Shown here in pieces: positions 41,359-47,539 of a stretch of 56,317 nt of DNA. Positions within the stretch are counted from its first letter, which is position 1. Every line of letters starts with the position of its first letter. The DNA lies in NCBI GenBank assembly GCA_964629135.1, contig CAZVPY010000001.1, positions 38,011 to 94,327 of the forward strand, read 5' to 3'. This stretch comes from an uncultured Thermotogaceae bacterium (GTDB lineage Bacteria; Thermotogota; Thermotogae; MWEM01). The notes under the pieces are model-generated. The model was given only the letters and a program-made list of their open reading frames with translations, had not been told where the DNA came from and searched no databases. The position numbers and the translations under genes were made by a program.

Positions 41359-43389
41359 CTAATCGTATACATCAACGATATTTGCGTAACTAATCTCCTG
41401 TATTTGCTCATCGATTAACCTCTCAAGCTTTTGATCACTTTCTCTTAATACCGATAAAAAGTTCTCATAAATCTTTTTCTCAGATTCCTTTAAATCCACT
41501 TTCAGTGTTGACTTAGCTTTTTTTATCAATCTTTTTCTTGAAACATAAAGCATCTTTACAACCCATTTAGGGATACGGATTTTTTTCGTTTTCTCTGCTA
41601 CTTGTTTTTTTAATCCCATGGCTGAAGCAACTGCTAAGACTACACCACCGATAAATCCACTTAACCACCCCAAAGGACCCGAAGCGAGTAAAGCAATACC
41701 TCCTCCCCCAAGAATTGCCCCAGATATTAAGCCAACGGCTACTGATGAAATCGCCGTTATCATGTTAAAGAATAGAAGATTTAATGGATTTATTTCACTA
41801 CCCGACTGAGTTAACTGATCGTAGGCAAAGTTGTTGTGATTTAAAAGTTCGTATTTAACCAAAGAACGGTTGAACCATCGGCTTAGTTCCTCTTTTGTTG
41901 ATTTTTCTATTTGATAATTGATCTCCTTAAGAAAACCATTGTTTAAACTGATTAATTCAGGTTGTCTTGCCAAAAAAGCACGTTTTAATCGATTTTCCAA
42001 TTCAACAATAGTTCCCCCTTCGTTCAGAAATTTCATGATGGCATTTTCAATTTCCGTAGAAAAGATTGAATAAATGGTTTGGGTATACTGAGTTAATGCG
42101 TCTTTAAAAAGTTTTCTATAGGATTCTTTTAATCTTTTTTCCAGTTCATCCTTATTTGCACTTAATTCAGCTCTGACTCTTTTTTCATATAGCTTTGCAG
42201 AATAAGATAATCCCAATCCTCTGCTAATTGTAGACTCCGGATCGGATGAAGCCAATATTCTTGTGTAAGGGAATTCTCGTTCTATCATATCCACAAAAAA
42301 TTTCCATCGGCTACTTCCACCGGTAAGAATGATCAAAGAAATAGAATCAGGTCTTATGTCATACTCTTTTTGGCCTCTCAGCACTTCAGAGGTGATAATA
42401 CTTGGTAAATCAATACATTCCTCAACTTCTAATTTTTTAGAATAAACTGACCCTTTTAAGTCGTGTTTTAGTTCATCGCTCATTTTGTAAGTAGTCATCT
42501 GCTCGTACAGGTAATCAAAATTTGGGATAGACAATGTGCCGTAGGAGTGCTGACCAAATACAATGTTTTCATTCATTTGATTATGCCGTGAAGTTGCATG
42601 GAGTACAGAGTATTTTTCTTTCAAATTTTTAAACAAAACGGTACGAAGATAACCACTCAAGCCTTCCTTTTCAACCAACGATTTTACGCCTTTATTCTGT
42701 CGGAGGAATAAATTGTAAAATAAATCATCAAATAACACACCACCAATAACAGGTGATCCCCATACTTTTTGGATTTTGAAGTTTTTTATATAAGCAAGGT
42801 CAAGGGTACCCCCACCGAAATCAATCACCAATACTCCACCTCGTCCATCTTCCTTGGTGATATCCTTTCTTACGATATGATAGTAAAGAGCTCCCAATGG
42901 CTCCTCAATCAAAACCGGCGTTTTGCCTATTAACTTAGAAAGTATTGCGATCATCTTTTCCGAATGCTTTTCATGTGTTTTAGAAGGCACACCACATACC
43001 ATTTCCGTGTTGTTGATAAAAGTTTTAATATCAAAAATCCGCTGTTTATCGAGATTAGTAAATAAAGCATTTAAAAACAATTCTGTCTCTGTCTCAGCCC
43101 TTTTATTAAAAGATAGCCGTTGTTTAAATCCCGTTCCCAATGTATATTTTCGTCTCTGAGATCGACTCATGGAATGCCATTCTTCAAGAGCCGGTTGGCC
43201 AAAACCCAATACTTCAAAATTTCTTTCGTCATATAAAATCACAGAAGGTACAGAGGCGTTGGATTCTATTTTGACATCATCAACAATAGGAACAGCTTCA
43301 GCCGCAGTGGAAATACTCATATGTGTATTTGAAGTTCCAAAATCAAGCCCAAATATATGTCTTATGTTTTGATCCAAATCATTTTTCAT
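41359..43389 (-). CDS. atypical Hsp70/actin-fold ATPase with C-terminal helical region and glycine-rich membrane hairpin
   Basis: It has IFGLDFGTSNT (phosphate-1), VLVIDFGGGTLDLAYI (phosphate-2) and LIILTGGSSRWKFF (adenosine motif). There is no DnaK-type substrate-binding domain. It has the hydrophobic Gly-rich stretch LLFFNMITAISSVAVGLISGAILGGGGIALLASGPLGWLSGFIGGVVLAVASAMGL. Its start overlaps the upstream stop (ATGA). Confidence 0.75.
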   Translation of the reverse strand: MKNDLDQNIRHIFGLDFGTSNTHMSISTAAEAVPIVDDVKIESNASVPSVILYDERNFEVLGFGQPALEEWHSMSRSQRRKYTLGTGFKQRLSFNKRAETETELFLNALFTNLDKQRIFDIKTFINNTEMVCGVPSKTHEKHSEKMIAILSKLIGKTPVLIEEPLGALYYHIVRKDITKEDGRGGVLVIDFGGGTLDLAYIKNFKIQKVWGSPVIGGVLFDDLFYNLFLRQNKGVKSLVEKEGLSGYLRTVLFKNLKEKYSVLHATSRHNQMNENIVFGQHSYGTLSIPNFDYLYEQMTTYKMSDELKHDLKGSVYSKKLEVEECIDLPSIITSEVLRGQKEYDIRPDSISLIILTGGSSRWKFFVDMIEREFPYTRILASSDPESTISRGLGLSYSAKLYEKRVRAELSANKDELEKRLKESYRKLFKDALTQYTQTIYSIFSTEIENAIMKFLNEGGTIVELENRLKRAFLARQPELISLNNGFLKEINYQIEKSTKEELSRWFNRSLVKYELLNHNNFAYDQLTQSGSEINPLNLLFFNMITAISSVAVGLISGAILGGGGIALLASGPLGWLSGFIGGVVLAVASAMGLKKQVAEKTKKIRIPKWVVKMLYVSRKRLIKKAKSTLKVDLKESEKKIYENFLSVLRESDQKLERLIDEQIQEISYANIVDVYD

Positions 43390-44483
43390 TTTTTTACCTT
43401 TTTGACCTTCCCTTTAAAAACACATCTTCCTTCTTCATCCACCCACGCATCATAAACCTGTTCAACCAAATCTCCTTCATTAATAATACCAAAACTGTCA
43501 AAATATTCAGTATCGGAAGGGGAATATTGAAAGGTGTGTTCTTTTTCTTTTTCATGAATCCCCATTGAATGCAAACTATTCAAGAAACTTGAAATCGATG
43601 ATAAAGCAGCTTCTTTATCTTCGTGGTTTTCTGCAAACTTCATTTGTTGAATAGAAGGCGTCAATTTTCTACTCTGTTGAATTGATATCCATGGAGTTTT
43701 ATCATTAACATGTTCTATACCATCTATAACGACTTTTTCAGGTAAAAACGCTATCATTTGTTGACTAAAAGCATGTACATCGTATAATAAAATAGCCAAC
43801 TGCGCTTCTAATACCTGTTTTGTTGCTTCAGCATCTACTACTCTTCTTGGTTTAAACAGATTAAGAATCCAAAAAGTCAAGACCGTAAGGAGAGCCAACC
43901 AAATCCATTGTATAAATGAAATCTTAGGTTTAAGTAAAAACTTATTTTTAAGTCCAGTAAAAACCGCTCCTATTGTAATAACAGCCAAACCCGTAATGGA
44001 AGACCACTTTATCATTTTTGTGATGAAAGGATGACGAATAGCCTTTGAAAATAAATAAACAAAAAGTGCTGCTCCAAAAGGCATACCTATTATCGGAGCG
44101 TATAAAGCATCTTTAAAAAAATCTCCCAAACTATAAAAAAAGATGATTCCAAAAAGAATTGCGCCAATAAATGCAGGAATTAAAAGTCTTTCATAAGCAG
44201 TAAATTCAACTTTCATTTTAGGAATATAAAATAAAGGTAATCCTTGCATTTTTTTATCGATTTGTGTGGTCAACGCATACCTTATTCGTTCTTTTGTCTC
44301 ATCATCAGATTTTTTTATCTCACTGTTGATCGTTTCGGGAATAAGCTTGTTATTGATCACTTTTTGGGTCTTTACTAATACCACAGAAGATAGATTATCC
44401 AAATGACTGAAATCAACATCTGATAGAATGGAAGCTTGACAGTCTTTTATAAGTTGACGTTCGACTTTGTCTTCAACCAACAT
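43386..44483 (-). CDS. four-helix membrane protein, partner of the Hsp70-like ATPase
   Basis: I chose the ATG at 44483 (MLVEDKVERQ) because AGAGGTG sits 7 nt upstream. It overlaps the 3' end of the phosphorylase gene by 11 nt. It has four hydrophobic helices (LLIPAFIGAILFGIIFFYSL, APIIGMPFGAALFVYLF, SSITGLAVITIGAVFTGL, FIQWIWLALLTVLTFWILNLF) flanked by soluble N- and C-terminal domains. I recognise no family. Confidence 0.6.
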   Translation of the reverse strand: MLVEDKVERQLIKDCQASILSDVDFSHLDNLSSVVLVKTQKVINNKLIPETINSEIKKSDDETKERIRYALTTQIDKKMQGLPLFYIPKMKVEFTAYERLLIPAFIGAILFGIIFFYSLGDFFKDALYAPIIGMPFGAALFVYLFSKAIRHPFITKMIKWSSITGLAVITIGAVFTGLKNKFLLKPKISFIQWIWLALLTVLTFWILNLFKPRRVVDAEATKQVLEAQLAILLYDVHAFSQQMIAFLPEKVVIDGIEHVNDKTPWISIQQSRKLTPSIQQMKFAENHEDKEAALSSISSFLNSLHSMGIHEKEKEHTFQYSPSDTEYFDSFGIINEGDLVEQVYDAWVDEEGRCVFKGKVKKVKK

Positions 44484-46182
44484 GAATAACACCTCTTTGG
44501 GGTTTAAGCCAATAAAAACTATAGGGTGCAAGTCTTAAGGTTTCACTAAAGTCATATCCTGTCAGTAAATCCTTGTAATGACCTTTCCCATTTATTTGTG
44601 AAAGATTAATAACTTGTGATTCCTCTGAAAGATTCACGATAACCAATAATTCTTCATCATCATAGCTTCTTTTAATAATAAACACTCTGGGATTTTCAAT
44701 TATACATTTTTGTTTAGCTTTGTAGGAAAGAGATTTTTGAGAAGCTCTTAATTCCAACATCTTTTTTAGGTTATTAAAAATCTGATGACGCTTGGACAAT
44801 TTGTTTGATAATGCTTGAGATATTGATTTAAAATCGATTTTTTCTCTGTTAATCGCCCGATTATGACCATTTTTTAGTATGCCCTCTTCCCAATTTTGTG
44901 AACCTAAAAGGCTGTGAATGTATATCCCCGGTATTCCTTTGAGAGAAATGGCTACTGCATATGCGCCTAAAAACTTTTTGATATTGTATTCCTCAGAATG
45001 AGAACAATCTGACAACGCGTCAAAATAATTAATATTCATTTCATAGGGGATCTCTGTTCCATCGGTATTTTGTTTATAGGATATTCTACCGTGATTTTTA
45101 AGACATTTTTGTACTAAGCTGTCAACTTCATCAGGTTTAATTAACCCCTTCAACGGCATCAACCCGATTCCATCATGTGAGGCTAAAAAATTAAAGTATG
45201 TCGCCTCTAAACCCGGGTCTTCAAGATTGGTTACCCATTGATTTAACTCATTGGAAGATTGCTGCAAATAAGCGTGTAGTATTAACGGTGGCAAAGAGAA
45301 GTTGTAAACCATATGTGCTTCATTTGTTCCATTCCCAAAATAGCTGATATTTTCAGAATGAGGGACATTCGTTTCAGTAATCAACAATGCGTTTTTATTT
45401 AAAGCATCCACAATGGACCGAAATAATCTAACAATTTCATGGGTTTGAGTCAAGTGAATACAGGATGTTGCCAATTCTTTCCAGAGATAACCAATGGCAT
45501 CCAACCTGATTAAGCTTGCCCCTTTTTCTATATAGAAAAGAAGTATATCAATAATTTTTAACAGGAGTTTTGGATTCTTATAATTTAAATCAATCTGATC
45601 TGAAGAAAATGTTGTCCATACCTTTTTTTTACCATTCTTTGTTTCAAAACTTGTTAATAAAGGGGTCGCTCTTGGTCTGGTAACTTGAGAAAGACCTTCT
45701 TCACTTTCTAATTCTATAAAAAAATCTTCATAATCCATTTTTGAATTTAAGAAGCCCTGAAACCAATCGCTTTTTTGTGAAATGTGGTTAATGACAGCAT
45801 CAAACATCAAATGATAATGTGCAGAAAGTTCTTCAACATCTTCCCAATTACCACACTGTGGATTGACCTTTTTATAATCAATAACGGAAAAACCATCATC
45901 GGATGAATAAGGGAAAAAAGGCAAGATATGAATGGTGTTAAATGCAGAACCGCAATATTTTAAGAGAAAATCCGTTAAAACACTCAAAGGGGAAGCTTCC
46001 CCTTTGAGTGTATCGGCATAAGTAATCAATATTCCATTGATATCTTCTAATTTTGTTCTATGACACTGTTTATGTTTTTTATTAAAGCAATCAATTTTTC
46101 TTATCACAACATCAAATAGTTCATCTACATCGTTGGGGTATACTTTTTTAAGACTCTTATAAATAGCCTCATCGTTATTCAT
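44473..46182 (-). CDS. GH13_18 sucrose-phosphorylase-family glycoside phosphorylase (YcjM-like length class; specificity unresolved)
   Basis: It has ILITYADTL, FNTIHILPFFPYSSDDGFSVIDY, the nucleophile segment IRLDAIGYLWKE, ITETNVPHSENISYFG and FLASHDGIGL. I chose the ATG at 46182 (MNNDEA), which has GGTGAT upstream. The track start is a GTG at 46194. Confidence 0.8.
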   Translation of the reverse strand: MNNDEAIYKSLKKVYPNDVDELFDVVIRKIDCFNKKHKQCHRTKLEDINGILITYADTLKGEASPLSVLTDFLLKYCGSAFNTIHILPFFPYSSDDGFSVIDYKKVNPQCGNWEDVEELSAHYHLMFDAVINHISQKSDWFQGFLNSKMDYEDFFIELESEEGLSQVTRPRATPLLTSFETKNGKKKVWTTFSSDQIDLNYKNPKLLLKIIDILLFYIEKGASLIRLDAIGYLWKELATSCIHLTQTHEIVRLFRSIVDALNKNALLITETNVPHSENISYFGNGTNEAHMVYNFSLPPLILHAYLQQSSNELNQWVTNLEDPGLEATYFNFLASHDGIGLMPLKGLIKPDEVDSLVQKCLKNHGRISYKQNTDGTEIPYEMNINYFDALSDCSHSEEYNIKKFLGAYAVAISLKGIPGIYIHSLLGSQNWEEGILKNGHNRAINREKIDFKSISQALSNKLSKRHQIFNNLKKMLELRASQKSLSYKAKQKCIIENPRVFIIKRSYDDEELLVIVNLSEESQVINLSQINGKGHYKDLLTGYDFSETLRLAPYSFYWLKPQRGVIHVG

Positions 46183-46231
46183 TTTTATCACCAACGAGAT
46201 TATAACAGAAATCTCTCGTTGTGAACAGGTA

Positions 46232-47539
46232 TTAATAATGCATATGAATCCATTCGCTTAACGATTCAATAACCTTTTCATCAACAAACCCAGGTTTATT
46301 GTATTCATCAGTCCAATGAAAAACCCCTTCTTCAGTTTTCAAAAATAAATGATTAAGAGTTGGGAACGAAAGGAAAGTAAAGTTATCGTATTGACCGTAT
46401 TTTTCTCTGAAGGGCAGGTAATCACCTTCCATCGTTACCTGAAAATCTTCTTCACCTTGTAAGATTAATACCGGCTCATCATAGTTTTCCAAGTCTTCCA
46501 GTGGGCTATATTCATCCAACTCATAATAATATTTTGCTGTTAAACCAGATTGAATTGGATAATCATCAGGAAGTTCATGGTTCAAAATCATACTGAAAAA
46601 TGCTTCAACCTGTTCCATTTGTTCATCGGTTATTCCTAAATAATCCTTTACATAACGGTTCTGATCGAGACTAATCTGAGCCAATCTCCTTATGCCTGGT
46701 GCAAGTAAGATTATTCCGTTTACCAATTCTGAATTAGTGGCAATCTTTGGTACAACTGTTCCTCCAAGGCTGTGACCTGCCAAGATGATACTGTCTACTT
46801 TTTCAATGTTTGTAGCATATGCAATGGCCAATAAAATATCTTCTGCATATTCAAAGTCAACCATATTTTCTATTTCACCCGTCATGTTACTTACTTTTTG
46901 ACCATGCTGCGCAGCTCGTTTGTTATACCTCATTACCGCTATACCGGAGGATGCTAATCCTTCTGCAATATCTTTATATGGCGTGTTTGGTCCTACCGTG
47001 CCATCCATATCAGTAGGCCCTGATCCTCCCACAATAATTACCATGGGGTAACTTTCTTTGTTCACAGGTAACGTCAATACACCATCTAATTCCCAACCAT
47101 CTTTTCCAAATTTAACAGGTTGTTCCTTAAAAGAATTATTATCCACATAAGATAGCTTCTTTCTGGGATCAGGAGCTGGGGCAGCATAAAACCCTGCGAT
47201 TTTCAGATCTTGATCCACTGTAACAGTGAATTTGAGATATCCTTTGGTTGTCTTCATAAGCTTCATGTATATTTTGTATTGGTCTTGTTCCATAATATCG
47301 GTGTTATAGGTTGTTTCGGGTTTTCCATACTGATTAATAATCATATTGGCGGATTGCTCCATTGCCTGAACACCGAAAGCATTTGTTAACTGCTCATTTT
47401 GAAGTTCCACTGCCCGTTGGTAATTTCCGTTCAAAAAGGCGTTGAGATATTCTTCAAATACGACTGAACGCTCATCATTCGCAAAACTAAAAATAGTCAC
47501 TATACAAAAAACCATACCGATGATCAACTTAATTCTCAT
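46232..47539 (-). CDS. secreted alpha/beta hydrolase with N-terminal accessory domain
   Basis: It has a signal peptide (MRIKLIIGMVFCIVTIFSFA), the nucleophile elbow LAGHSLGG and a later ILQGEEDFQV and LNHLF (Asp and His regions). GGAGG lies upstream of the ATG. Confidence 0.75.
   Translation of the reverse strand: MRIKLIIGMVFCIVTIFSFANDERSVVFEEYLNAFLNGNYQRAVELQNEQLTNAFGVQAMEQSANMIINQYGKPETTYNTDIMEQDQYKIYMKLMKTTKGYLKFTVTVDQDLKIAGFYAAPAPDPRKKLSYVDNNSFKEQPVKFGKDGWELDGVLTLPVNKESYPMVIIVGGSGPTDMDGTVGPNTPYKDIAEGLASSGIAVMRYNKRAAQHGQKVSNMTGEIENMVDFEYAEDILLAIAYATNIEKVDSIILAGHSLGGTVVPKIATNSELVNGIILLAPGIRRLAQISLDQNRYVKDYLGITDEQMEQVEAFFSMILNHELPDDYPIQSGLTAKYYYELDEYSPLEDLENYDEPVLILQGEEDFQVTMEGDYLPFREKYGQYDNFTFLSFPTLNHLFLKTEEGVFHWTDEYNKPGFVDEKVIESLSEWIHMHY

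Follow-up and report, generated by a model that had tools for sequence, protein, structure and literature searches.

Hsp70 is a protein-folding engine in which a nucleotide-binding domain (NBD) and a substrate-binding domain are combined with a J-protein and an exchange factor, and in many bacteria the dnaK and grpE genes are adjacent and co-transcribed. A broad and largely uncharacterised set of proteins has also been recognized in which the Hsp70 NBD carries a non-canonical C-terminus, and these DnaK-derived paralogues are considered an open question (PMC13580251, a 2026 review). E. coli HscC and the tail-anchored J-proteins DjlB and DjlC are thought to work at the membrane (PMC8215388). DnaK-domain genes also adjoin some cyanobacterial genes for dynamin-like proteins ("chaperone-group" bacterial dynamin-like proteins, BDLPs; PMC5827413, a 2018 review), an earlier hint of a functional link between Hsp70-like ATPases and dynamin-like membrane remodellers in bacteria. 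Here we analyzed two overlapping genes located on the minus strand of a stretch of 56,317 nucleotides (nt) from an uncultured Thermotogaceae bacterium (contig CAZVPY010000001.1), hereafter the window. They encode an Hsp70-type ATPase of 676 amino acids (aa) and a membrane protein of 365 aa, hereafter the partner.

The pair was compared with these described systems. As in DnaK-GrpE, the ATPase has the fold of the Hsp70 NBD and every catalytic residue, the partner ends in a helix bundle and a beta-domain for which GrpE is the best match in fold as well as in profile comparison, and the two genes are adjacent and probably co-transcribed. Unlike DnaK, the ATPase has no interdomain linker, beta-sandwich substrate-binding domain, lid or linked J-protein; both proteins are predicted to be integral to the membrane, and the output part of the ATPase would be a stalk with a membrane hairpin. 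Unlike GrpE, the partner matches no GrpE sequence model and has an additional N-terminal domain and two to four transmembrane helices. YegD, the Myxococcus "derivates" and HscC are, like the ATPase, DnaK-derived paralogues in which the substrate-binding domain is missing or modified, and like HscC the ATPase probably works at the plasma membrane (PMC8215388); however, descriptions of these proteins mention no membrane hairpin, no stalk and no GrpE-like membrane protein dedicated to them. The cyanobacterial case differs in that the two activities reside on different polypeptides and the GTPase of the dynamin is retained. We consider it about an even bet that the two genes form a membrane machine in which an Hsp70-type ATPase is served by its own membrane-embedded, GrpE-like exchange factor and acts on the membrane. 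The anatomy and the synteny of the pair, as described below, are held with high confidence.

The two genes are translationally coupled. In the junction sequence AAAAAATGAAAAAT the TGA stop codon of the partner gene and the ATG start codon of the ATPase gene share bases 43389-43386, and in other phyla overlaps of 4 nt (-4) or gaps of at most 9 nt are common between the two genes. Both open reading frames (ORFs), together with their ATGA overlap, had been proposed in an original prediction, made by a model from the letters of the window, and were confirmed; both lie on the minus strand. In about 45 of 54 loci a partner-type gene carrying the C-terminal motif of the family stands directly upstream of the ATPase gene, at a distance of -4 to about +60 nt. 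Such genes typically encode 330-430 aa with hydrophobic helices in the middle of the protein. Three distant genomes each have an unannotated gene of 259-363 aa immediately before the ATPase gene and in the same orientation. The pair is syntenic across at least nine bacterial phyla, a recurrence far beyond chance, which answers the question raised by the original prediction, namely whether the partner is the conserved neighbour across phyla. The lineages concerned are Thermotogota, Calditrichota, Planctomycetota, Synergistota, Spirochaetota, Chlamydiota, Halanaerobiales, Desulfovibrionaceae, Alphaproteobacteria and Gammaproteobacteria/Chromatiaceae. Clustering of all neighbouring ORFs revealed no third conserved gene: only the ATPase and the partner are conserved. 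In a phmmer search with genuine E. coli DnaJ and GrpE as queries (E <= 0.01), which bears on linked genes only, neither the 56-kb window nor any of about 60 homologous loci yielded a gene for a J-domain protein, GrpE or DnaK; that no J-domain gene lies nearby had been noticed before.

Homologues of the ATPase with a length of 650-700 aa number 273, and the closest named relatives are proteins of Thermotogota metagenome-assembled genomes (MAGs), at 67-69 % identity. Partner relatives were harder to collect: a word-indexed search gave 9, deepening it gave one new sequence, and a profile search gave 41 among 1.84 billion representatives. The partner evolves faster, with a median identity of 20 % versus 28 % for the ATPase. 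Pairwise distances of the two proteins (mirror tree) correlate with r = 0.95, a value that none of 2000 permutations reached, and with r = 0.77 among distant pairs; judged by these distances, ATPase and partner co-evolve. Every lineage that carries a full-length pair is diderm, which holds also for the Halanaerobiales, diderm members of the Firmicutes, and the full-length matches listed include none from Actinobacteria or Bacilli, both under non-systematic sampling. Several of these lineages (Planctomycetota, Chromatiaceae, Thermotogota) have elaborate internal or unusual membranes.

The head of the ATPase was characterized on an alignment of 52 family sequences, which served for the conservation counts and for an AlphaFold2 model (mean predicted local distance difference test score, pLDDT, 83.4; predicted template-modelling score, pTM, 0.76). 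The three motifs of the Hsp70/actin ATPase fold follow one another in the order originally predicted, as IFGLDFGTSNT, VLVIDFGGGTLDLAYI (phosphate-2) and LIILTGGSSRWKFF (adenosine), and their columns D16, T19, D190, G192-194, T195, D197 and G357-G358 are invariant in 52/52 homologues, as are K89 and E163. Equivalents of DnaK D8, T11, E171, D194, T199, D201 and G341-G342 are thus present in all 52 members; K89 is a candidate equivalent of DnaK K70, at a position where the alignment is less secure. When the model was compared with the PDB by Foldseek, the top 50 matches were all Hsp70 NBDs (DnaK, BiP, Hsc70, mortalin), with E values of 3e-15 to 5e-13 and target-normalised template-modelling scores of 0.42-0.70 (about 0.63-0.70 for entries that contain the NBD only). 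In HHalign, the family profile paired residues 10-394 of the ATPase with residues 2-377 of genuine E. coli DnaK (probability 98.6 %, E 6.5e-16), and nothing aligned past these positions. As this alignment stops at residue 394, the ATPase lacks the linker and the substrate-binding domain of DnaK. The claims of the original prediction that the first 400 aa or so are an Hsp70-type NBD and that no DnaK-type substrate-binding domain follows were both borne out.

Curated models recognize the head only at their margins. The Pfam HSP70 score is 20.9 bits for a cut-off of 20.6, accompanied by weak ParM, MreB and Ppx matches; the NCBIfam DnaK, HscA and HscC models score 11-25 bits, far below their cut-offs of 331-1019, and the YegD-type model (PRK11678) is also far below its cut-off. 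NCBI product names for the homologues are "Hsp70 family protein" or "hypothetical". The positions equivalent to the J-contact residues R167, N170 and T173 of DnaK are variable in the family (K/R/V, E/P/D and V/L/K). Since the catalytic residues are invariant and the J-contact positions are not conserved, the ATPase is predicted to hydrolyse ATP, yet should not be a canonical chaperone. The equivalent of the DnaK G32 loop is a glycine in 30 of the 52 members, which is only suggestive for a contact with GrpE. No curated family in Pfam, NCBIfam or PADLOC exists for the pair, no characterised family claims either protein, and no published description was found in the full-text literature, of which coverage is incomplete; the original prediction had likewise not recognized the architecture as a described system.

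Beyond residue 384 the AlphaFold2 model of the ATPase is entirely helical, with helices 384-411, 413-457, 461-474 and 476-508 after the NBD; within this ascending stalk GG458-459 is invariant and W505 nearly so. The stalk leads to a glycine-rich hydrophobic segment, the predicted hairpin or paddle, whose turn motif GG.G.A...SGP.GW..G is conserved. The longest charge-free stretch of the C-terminal half has a median length of 50 aa and measures 44-61 aa in 48 of the 52 homologues. On average the turn contains 0.06 K+R, 0.04 D+E and 4.3 Gly, and the flanks contain 4.3 K+R after it versus 1.6 before it. A charge-free turn next to a flank rich in K+R is consistent with a hairpin whose two ends face the cytoplasm. 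The chain then appears to return through helices 618-650 and 652-664 (pLDDT 82-87 for residues 621-670). The originally predicted succession of a helical segment, a glycine-rich hydrophobic hairpin and a lysine-rich tail thus agrees with the model, the charge-free stretch and the family statistics. A profile of the C-terminal half searched against the PDB and Pfam gave coiled-coil and apolipoprotein noise only, and no BDLP.

The AlphaFold2 model of the partner, built from 41 sequences, has a pLDDT of 82.9 and a pTM of 0.49. Its three-helix N-terminal domain (residues 1-95), predicted to be cytoplasmic, matched no family or fold. Hydropathy and the model place four hydrophobic helices at 97-122, 128-150, 152-179 and 190-209, as the original prediction had stated for the 365-aa protein. 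The hairpin formed by the first two transmembrane helices (TM1-TM2) is universal, with Gly107, Gly112 and Gly137 near-invariant; TM3-TM4 are absent in about 15 % of the partners, which have two hydrophobic helices instead of four, a variation that the original prediction had not included. The predicted number of helices is always even (2 or 4), which places both soluble domains on the same side of the membrane. In Phycisphaerae/Planctomycetota (loci L010-L012, L017, L019, L027 and L036) the TM3-TM4 region measures about 20 aa, versus about 58, and only the TM1-TM2 hairpin is left; the minimal anchor of the partner would therefore be one glycine-rich hairpin. In the C-terminal part, helices 264-306 end in the invariant G308 and are followed by a small beta-domain (309-362), and the family shares the motif Y..FG.I.EGD.V.V...PV...G.V.KG.VRKVR. 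Two Deltaproteobacteria MAGs (L052 and L057) carry the GrpE-like motif at the end of a longer ORF of 585-608 aa with 5-7 predicted transmembrane helices, which is either a fused or extended variant of the partner or an artefact of choosing the most upstream start codon. A protein of 1981 aa (P0139) matched the partner profile 11 times, always at positions 84-126 (the TM1 region), and is probably a repetitive glycine-rich hydrophobic protein, not a relative.

Two comparisons link the C-terminal module of the partner to GrpE. A Foldseek search of the partner model against 350,542 PDB chains placed Thermus thermophilus GrpE (3a6m_A) at rank 1 with a probability of 0.99, all other matches having a probability of at most 0.15 (the next one 0.14). 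We also built a GrpE profile from 81 genuine sequences, E. coli grpE and 80 diverse GrpE genes from metagenomes. In a profile-profile comparison by hhalign, residues 291-364 of the partner were paired with E. coli GrpE 121-194 (score 23.8, P 0.003), that is with the last helix of the bundle and the beta-domain, ordered as in GrpE and in the register that the original prediction had proposed. The controls scored lower: 15.0 for reversed GrpE, 13.1 for the reversed partner, 15.2 and 14.0 for unrelated families, at most 16.5 in 60 column shuffles and at most 20.3 in 60 block shuffles. Conserved positions correspond as well, G308 to GrpE G138 (the "GVE" position), the glycine before the first beta-strand to its counterpart, and [KR]G to GrpE R186; the long juxtamembrane helix 218-246 could be the counterpart of the long N-terminal helix of GrpE. 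Because two lines, each marginal, converge on one hypothesis stated beforehand, we favour a GrpE-like fold for this module as the probable one. That the partner acts as the nucleotide-exchange factor of the ATPase is a further step, whose chances we consider evenly balanced.

The C-terminal half of the ATPase is laid out like the stalk and paddle of a dynamin-like protein, a likeness that goes beyond the original prediction. LeoB/LeoBC of the Eleos system and Nostoc BDLP1 show the same order of nucleotide-hydrolysing head, ascending stalk, glycine-rich paddle and descending helices, and in LeoB the corresponding region comprises the middle domain, the glycine-rich membrane-binding paddle and the GTPase effector domain (PMC4159319). 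With PADLOC, residues 402-667 of the ATPase matched positions 326-561 of the 601 of the LeoBC profile (E 6.5e-10). Among the 52 family members, 33 matched LeoBC (best E 8.4e-11), 11 LeoB and 3 LeoA, and no other defence profile was matched repeatedly by the C-terminal half; the LeoBC matches span profile positions 326 to 567 or so, always past the GTPase part. Shuffled C-terminal halves matched no Leo profile, and in the five proteins that scored against LeoBC both forward and reversed, the forward score is the higher one by 3-26 bits. HHalign against genuine LeoB of enterotoxigenic E. coli H10407 gave a score of 46 (E 7e-6), and reversed controls gave 28-31. LeoA obtained no HHalign score, a LeoB family profile built from plasmids gave GTPase-level matches only, and no dynamin Pfam family was matched in the ATPase. 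Compared with BDLPs, the head of the ATPase is of the Hsp70 type and not a dynamin GTPase, and its partner is not a second dynamin-like protein.

In the mechanism that we propose, binding and hydrolysis of ATP would change the angle between the lobes of the NBD, and the helix leaving the NBD would relay this motion to the stalk and from there to the membrane-inserted hairpin. The partner would lie beside the ATPase in the bilayer, probably through packing of the glycine-rich helices of both proteins, and its GrpE-like domain, seated on lobes IB/IIB of the NBD, would release ADP and reset the cycle. The output would be work on the membrane itself or on one of its components (bending, tethering, fusion, fission or repair), not the folding of soluble clients. 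Membrane remodelling as this output is a tentative suggestion, drawn from analogy with the dynamin-like proteins. Bolder, and on balance doubtful, is the proposal that the pair is an ATP-driven counterpart of the bacterial dynamins, in which an Hsp70 engine replaces the GTPase head and is reset by an exchange factor derived from GrpE and built into the membrane.

Several observations weigh against this mechanism, beginning with the fact that the output is argued by analogy only. AlphaFold2 is unsure of the hairpin (pLDDT 44-60 for residues 535-590 or so), which may either span the bilayer or be inserted as a wedge into a single leaflet. In the partner of the window the loop between TM3 and TM4 is rich in lysine, which sits uneasily with a periplasmic position. 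Reversed C-terminal halves still match Leo profiles in 7 cases out of 9, with E values down to 5e-7, and the HHalign support for LeoB is confined to 22 columns, the glycine-rich paddle helix (LeoB 457-478). For these two reasons the likeness to dynamin is read as architecture: homology of the stalk is not claimed, and the head-stalk-paddle-stalk layout and the paddle chemistry, though truly dynamin-like, do not establish common descent. As to GrpE, the match to 3a6m_A has an E value of 0.039 over 157 columns, with a target-normalised template-modelling score of 0.42 and a root-mean-square deviation of 18 A; the hhalign probability is just 10.5 %; and the two lines share the same family alignment and so are not fully independent. 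Pfam GrpE (PF01025) was unmatched in 43/43 partners, and the hidden Markov model of the partner family found no GrpE match in the PDB at E <= 10. Membership of the partner in the GrpE sequence family was therefore rejected. The GrpE-like C-terminus, in the original prediction the weakest link of the argument, thus gained two supports, each of them marginal, in the rank-1 match and the hhalign P value. The beta-domain might instead be a generic small beta-barrel (SH3-, Tudor- or bPH-like), in which case the partner would serve the ATPase as a membrane scaffold or regulator instead of an exchange factor. The weak GrpE statistics and the lack of GrpE matches at the sequence level speak for this, as do weak matches of three partners to Pfam bPH_10 (E about 0.07) and the fact that Hsp70s of the HscA/HscC type work without GrpE (PMC8215388). 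It is nevertheless rather unlikely, in view of the gap that separates GrpE from the next of the 350,542 chains and of an alignment in GrpE order and register which exceeds 120 shuffles and the reversed controls; a GrpE-like module beside an Hsp70 NBD is also functionally coherent.

The alternatives that concern the whole pair keep part of this machinery and change its purpose. A membrane-proximal chaperone or quality-control device would act on polypeptide clients, such as membrane-protein loops on the cytoplasmic side or the partner, with the stalk replacing the substrate-binding domain and the partner exchanging nucleotides, recruiting clients or both. The intact catalytic site of the Hsp70-type NBD and the GrpE-like nature of the partner would suit such a role, for which Hsp70 paralogues at the plasma membrane are a precedent (PMC8215388) and many DnaK-derived NBD paralogues remain uncharacterised (PMC13580251). 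The missing substrate-binding domain, hydrophobic interdomain linker and J-domain partner argue against it, together with the non-conserved J-site residues, and what is conserved after the NBD is a helical bundle and a membrane hairpin, with no peptide-binding groove; we consider a chaperone role improbable. Far less probable still is a membrane-anchored, polymerising ATPase of the actin-like type (MreB, FtsA or ParM), with the partner as the membrane receptor of its filaments. FtsA and MreB do bind membranes directly, weak Pfam MreB_Mbl and ParM_N matches were obtained, and many homologues carry a precomputed PF06723 assignment. However, none of the 50 best fold matches is MreB, FtsA or ParM, the head has the size of Hsp70 (about 395 aa) and aligns with DnaK as given above, and the partner resembles an Hsp70 cofactor. 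An anti-phage defence related to Eleos (LeoA + LeoBC), its GTPase swapped for an Hsp70-like ATPase, would account for the recurrence of LeoBC, LeoB and LeoA as the only defence profiles matched. Eleos consists of two dynamin-like genes in tandem in a defence-island context; the present pair instead has a GrpE-like membrane neighbour and a housekeeping context. The ATPase has no GTPase domain, no LeoA-like second gene is present, the partner has no PADLOC match, and the Leo match survives sequence reversal. The genes track phylogeny closely, unlike patchy defence islands, and their neighbourhoods are variable, of the housekeeping type and free of defence genes (PheS, PurH, AhcY, GH13, Mfd, D-Ala-D-Ala ligase and others), a setting that suggests envelope maintenance and not defence. 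A defence function of this kind is thus scarcely credible, and membership in a defence system was rejected on gene context and missing components.

Should the preferred reading of a membrane machine hold, only the NBD and an apparent GrpE-type exchange factor would be kept from Hsp70, both predicted to be membrane-embedded, with the NBD driving a stalk that bears a hairpin. The Hsp70-GrpE nucleotide cycle would then have found a second use in driving work on membranes, a testable function would be at hand for one among the many DnaK-derived paralogues that lack an explanation, and an ATP-driven system would be added to the prokaryotic membrane remodellers (dynamin-like proteins, PspA/Vipp1/ESCRT-III). 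If the pair were indeed a dynamin counterpart, it would represent a class of prokaryotic machines for membrane fusion, fission or repair that had so far escaped recognition, with the first membrane-integral relative of GrpE and the first Hsp70 to have a lipid bilayer as its "client". Two genes suffice and the family is present in cultured organisms (Thiocystis, Allochromatium, Thiobaca, Dethiosulfovibrio), so reconstitution is feasible. The features of the locus are collected in Table 1.

Table 1. Position of the ATPase and partner genes, of their predicted domains and of adjacent features in the window
Feature	Position	Strand	Basis or remark
ATPase gene, 676 aa	41359..43389 (including stop)	minus	ORF, ATG start
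Hsp70-type NBD, residues 1-395, full catalytic set	42205..43389	minus	Foldseek, HHalign and conservation
Ascending helical stalk, residues 396-533	41791..42204	minus	AlphaFold2 secondary structure, pLDDT 84-93 to residue 508
Charge-free glycine-rich hydrophobic hairpin (predicted "paddle"), residues 534-593	41611..41790	minus	Hydropathy and family statistics
K/R-rich juxtamembrane segment and descending stalk helices, residues 594-676	41359..41610	minus	AlphaFold2
ATGA overlap of partner stop (TGA) and ATPase start (ATG)	43386..43389	minus	Sequence read
Partner gene, 365 aa from ATG	43386..44483 (including stop)	minus	ORF
Three-helix N-terminal domain, predicted cytoplasmic, residues 1-95	44199..44483	minus	AlphaFold2 helices 2-20, 28-55, 61-81, pLDDT 83-93
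Membrane region, residues 96-210	43854..44198	minus	Hydropathy and AlphaFold2
Long juxtamembrane helix (218-246) and disordered linker (250-263), residues 211-263	43695..43853	minus	AlphaFold2
GrpE-like module (probable), residues 264-365	43389..43694	minus	Foldseek and hhalign
Shine-Dalgarno-like AGAGGTG of the partner gene	44490..44496	minus	Sequence read; in 3' end of GH13 gene
GH13 sucrose-phosphorylase-like gene	44473..46194	minus	Upstream of partner gene
Alpha/beta-hydrolase gene	46232..47539	minus	Upstream of GH13 gene
169-aa ORF with N-terminal hydrophobic signal-like segment	40816-41325	minus	33 nt downstream of ATPase gene

The partner gene begins within its upstream neighbour. Its ATG (44483) is preceded at 7 nt by the Shine-Dalgarno sequence AGAGGTG, in a window of about 35 % G+C, and its start overlaps the stop (44473) of the sucrose-phosphorylase-like GH13 gene by 11 nt; an alternative TTG start at 44531 would give a protein of 381 aa. 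A perfect match to the sigma-70 consensus (TTGACA-17-TATAAT, extended by TG) is located at 47594-47566 on the minus strand, upstream of the hydrolase gene, and on this basis the hydrolase, GH13, partner and ATPase genes may form one operon. This four-gene arrangement is shared with two Thermotogota loci only (L006 and L007), and GH13, hydrolase, AhcY and PurH neighbours are conserved within Thermotogota only. The 169-aa ORF downstream of the ATPase gene has a weak DUF3157 match only and is not kept beside the pair in other phyla. In Dethiosulfovibrio salsuginis (L005:7946-8548) a soluble lytic transglycosylase gene shares 14 nt with the 3' end of the ATPase gene, perhaps a sign of a link with the envelope; the overlap was seen in this organism and not in other lineages.

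Some more distant candidates were also considered. The cyanobacterial lead, DnaK beside a BDLP, was set aside, the relatives retrieved being NBD-only, without a dynamin neighbour and without a hairpin, and the Hsp70-like units of CoCoNuT (NBD/SBD, that is nucleotide- and substrate-binding domains, fused to McrB/McrC) have an unrelated architecture. Two Clostridia loci (L064:5974-11731 and L078:6010-9659) contain distant NBD-only Hsp70-like paralogues of 564-600 aa, without a hairpin, which overlap a next gene of 1333 and 652 aa, respectively, with an N-terminal J-domain. In a Victivallales locus (L063) the gene after the NBD-only paralogue encodes a HerA/FtsK-like ATPase. These three loci resemble further modules, likewise uncharacterised, in which an Hsp70 NBD is combined with another kind of partner.

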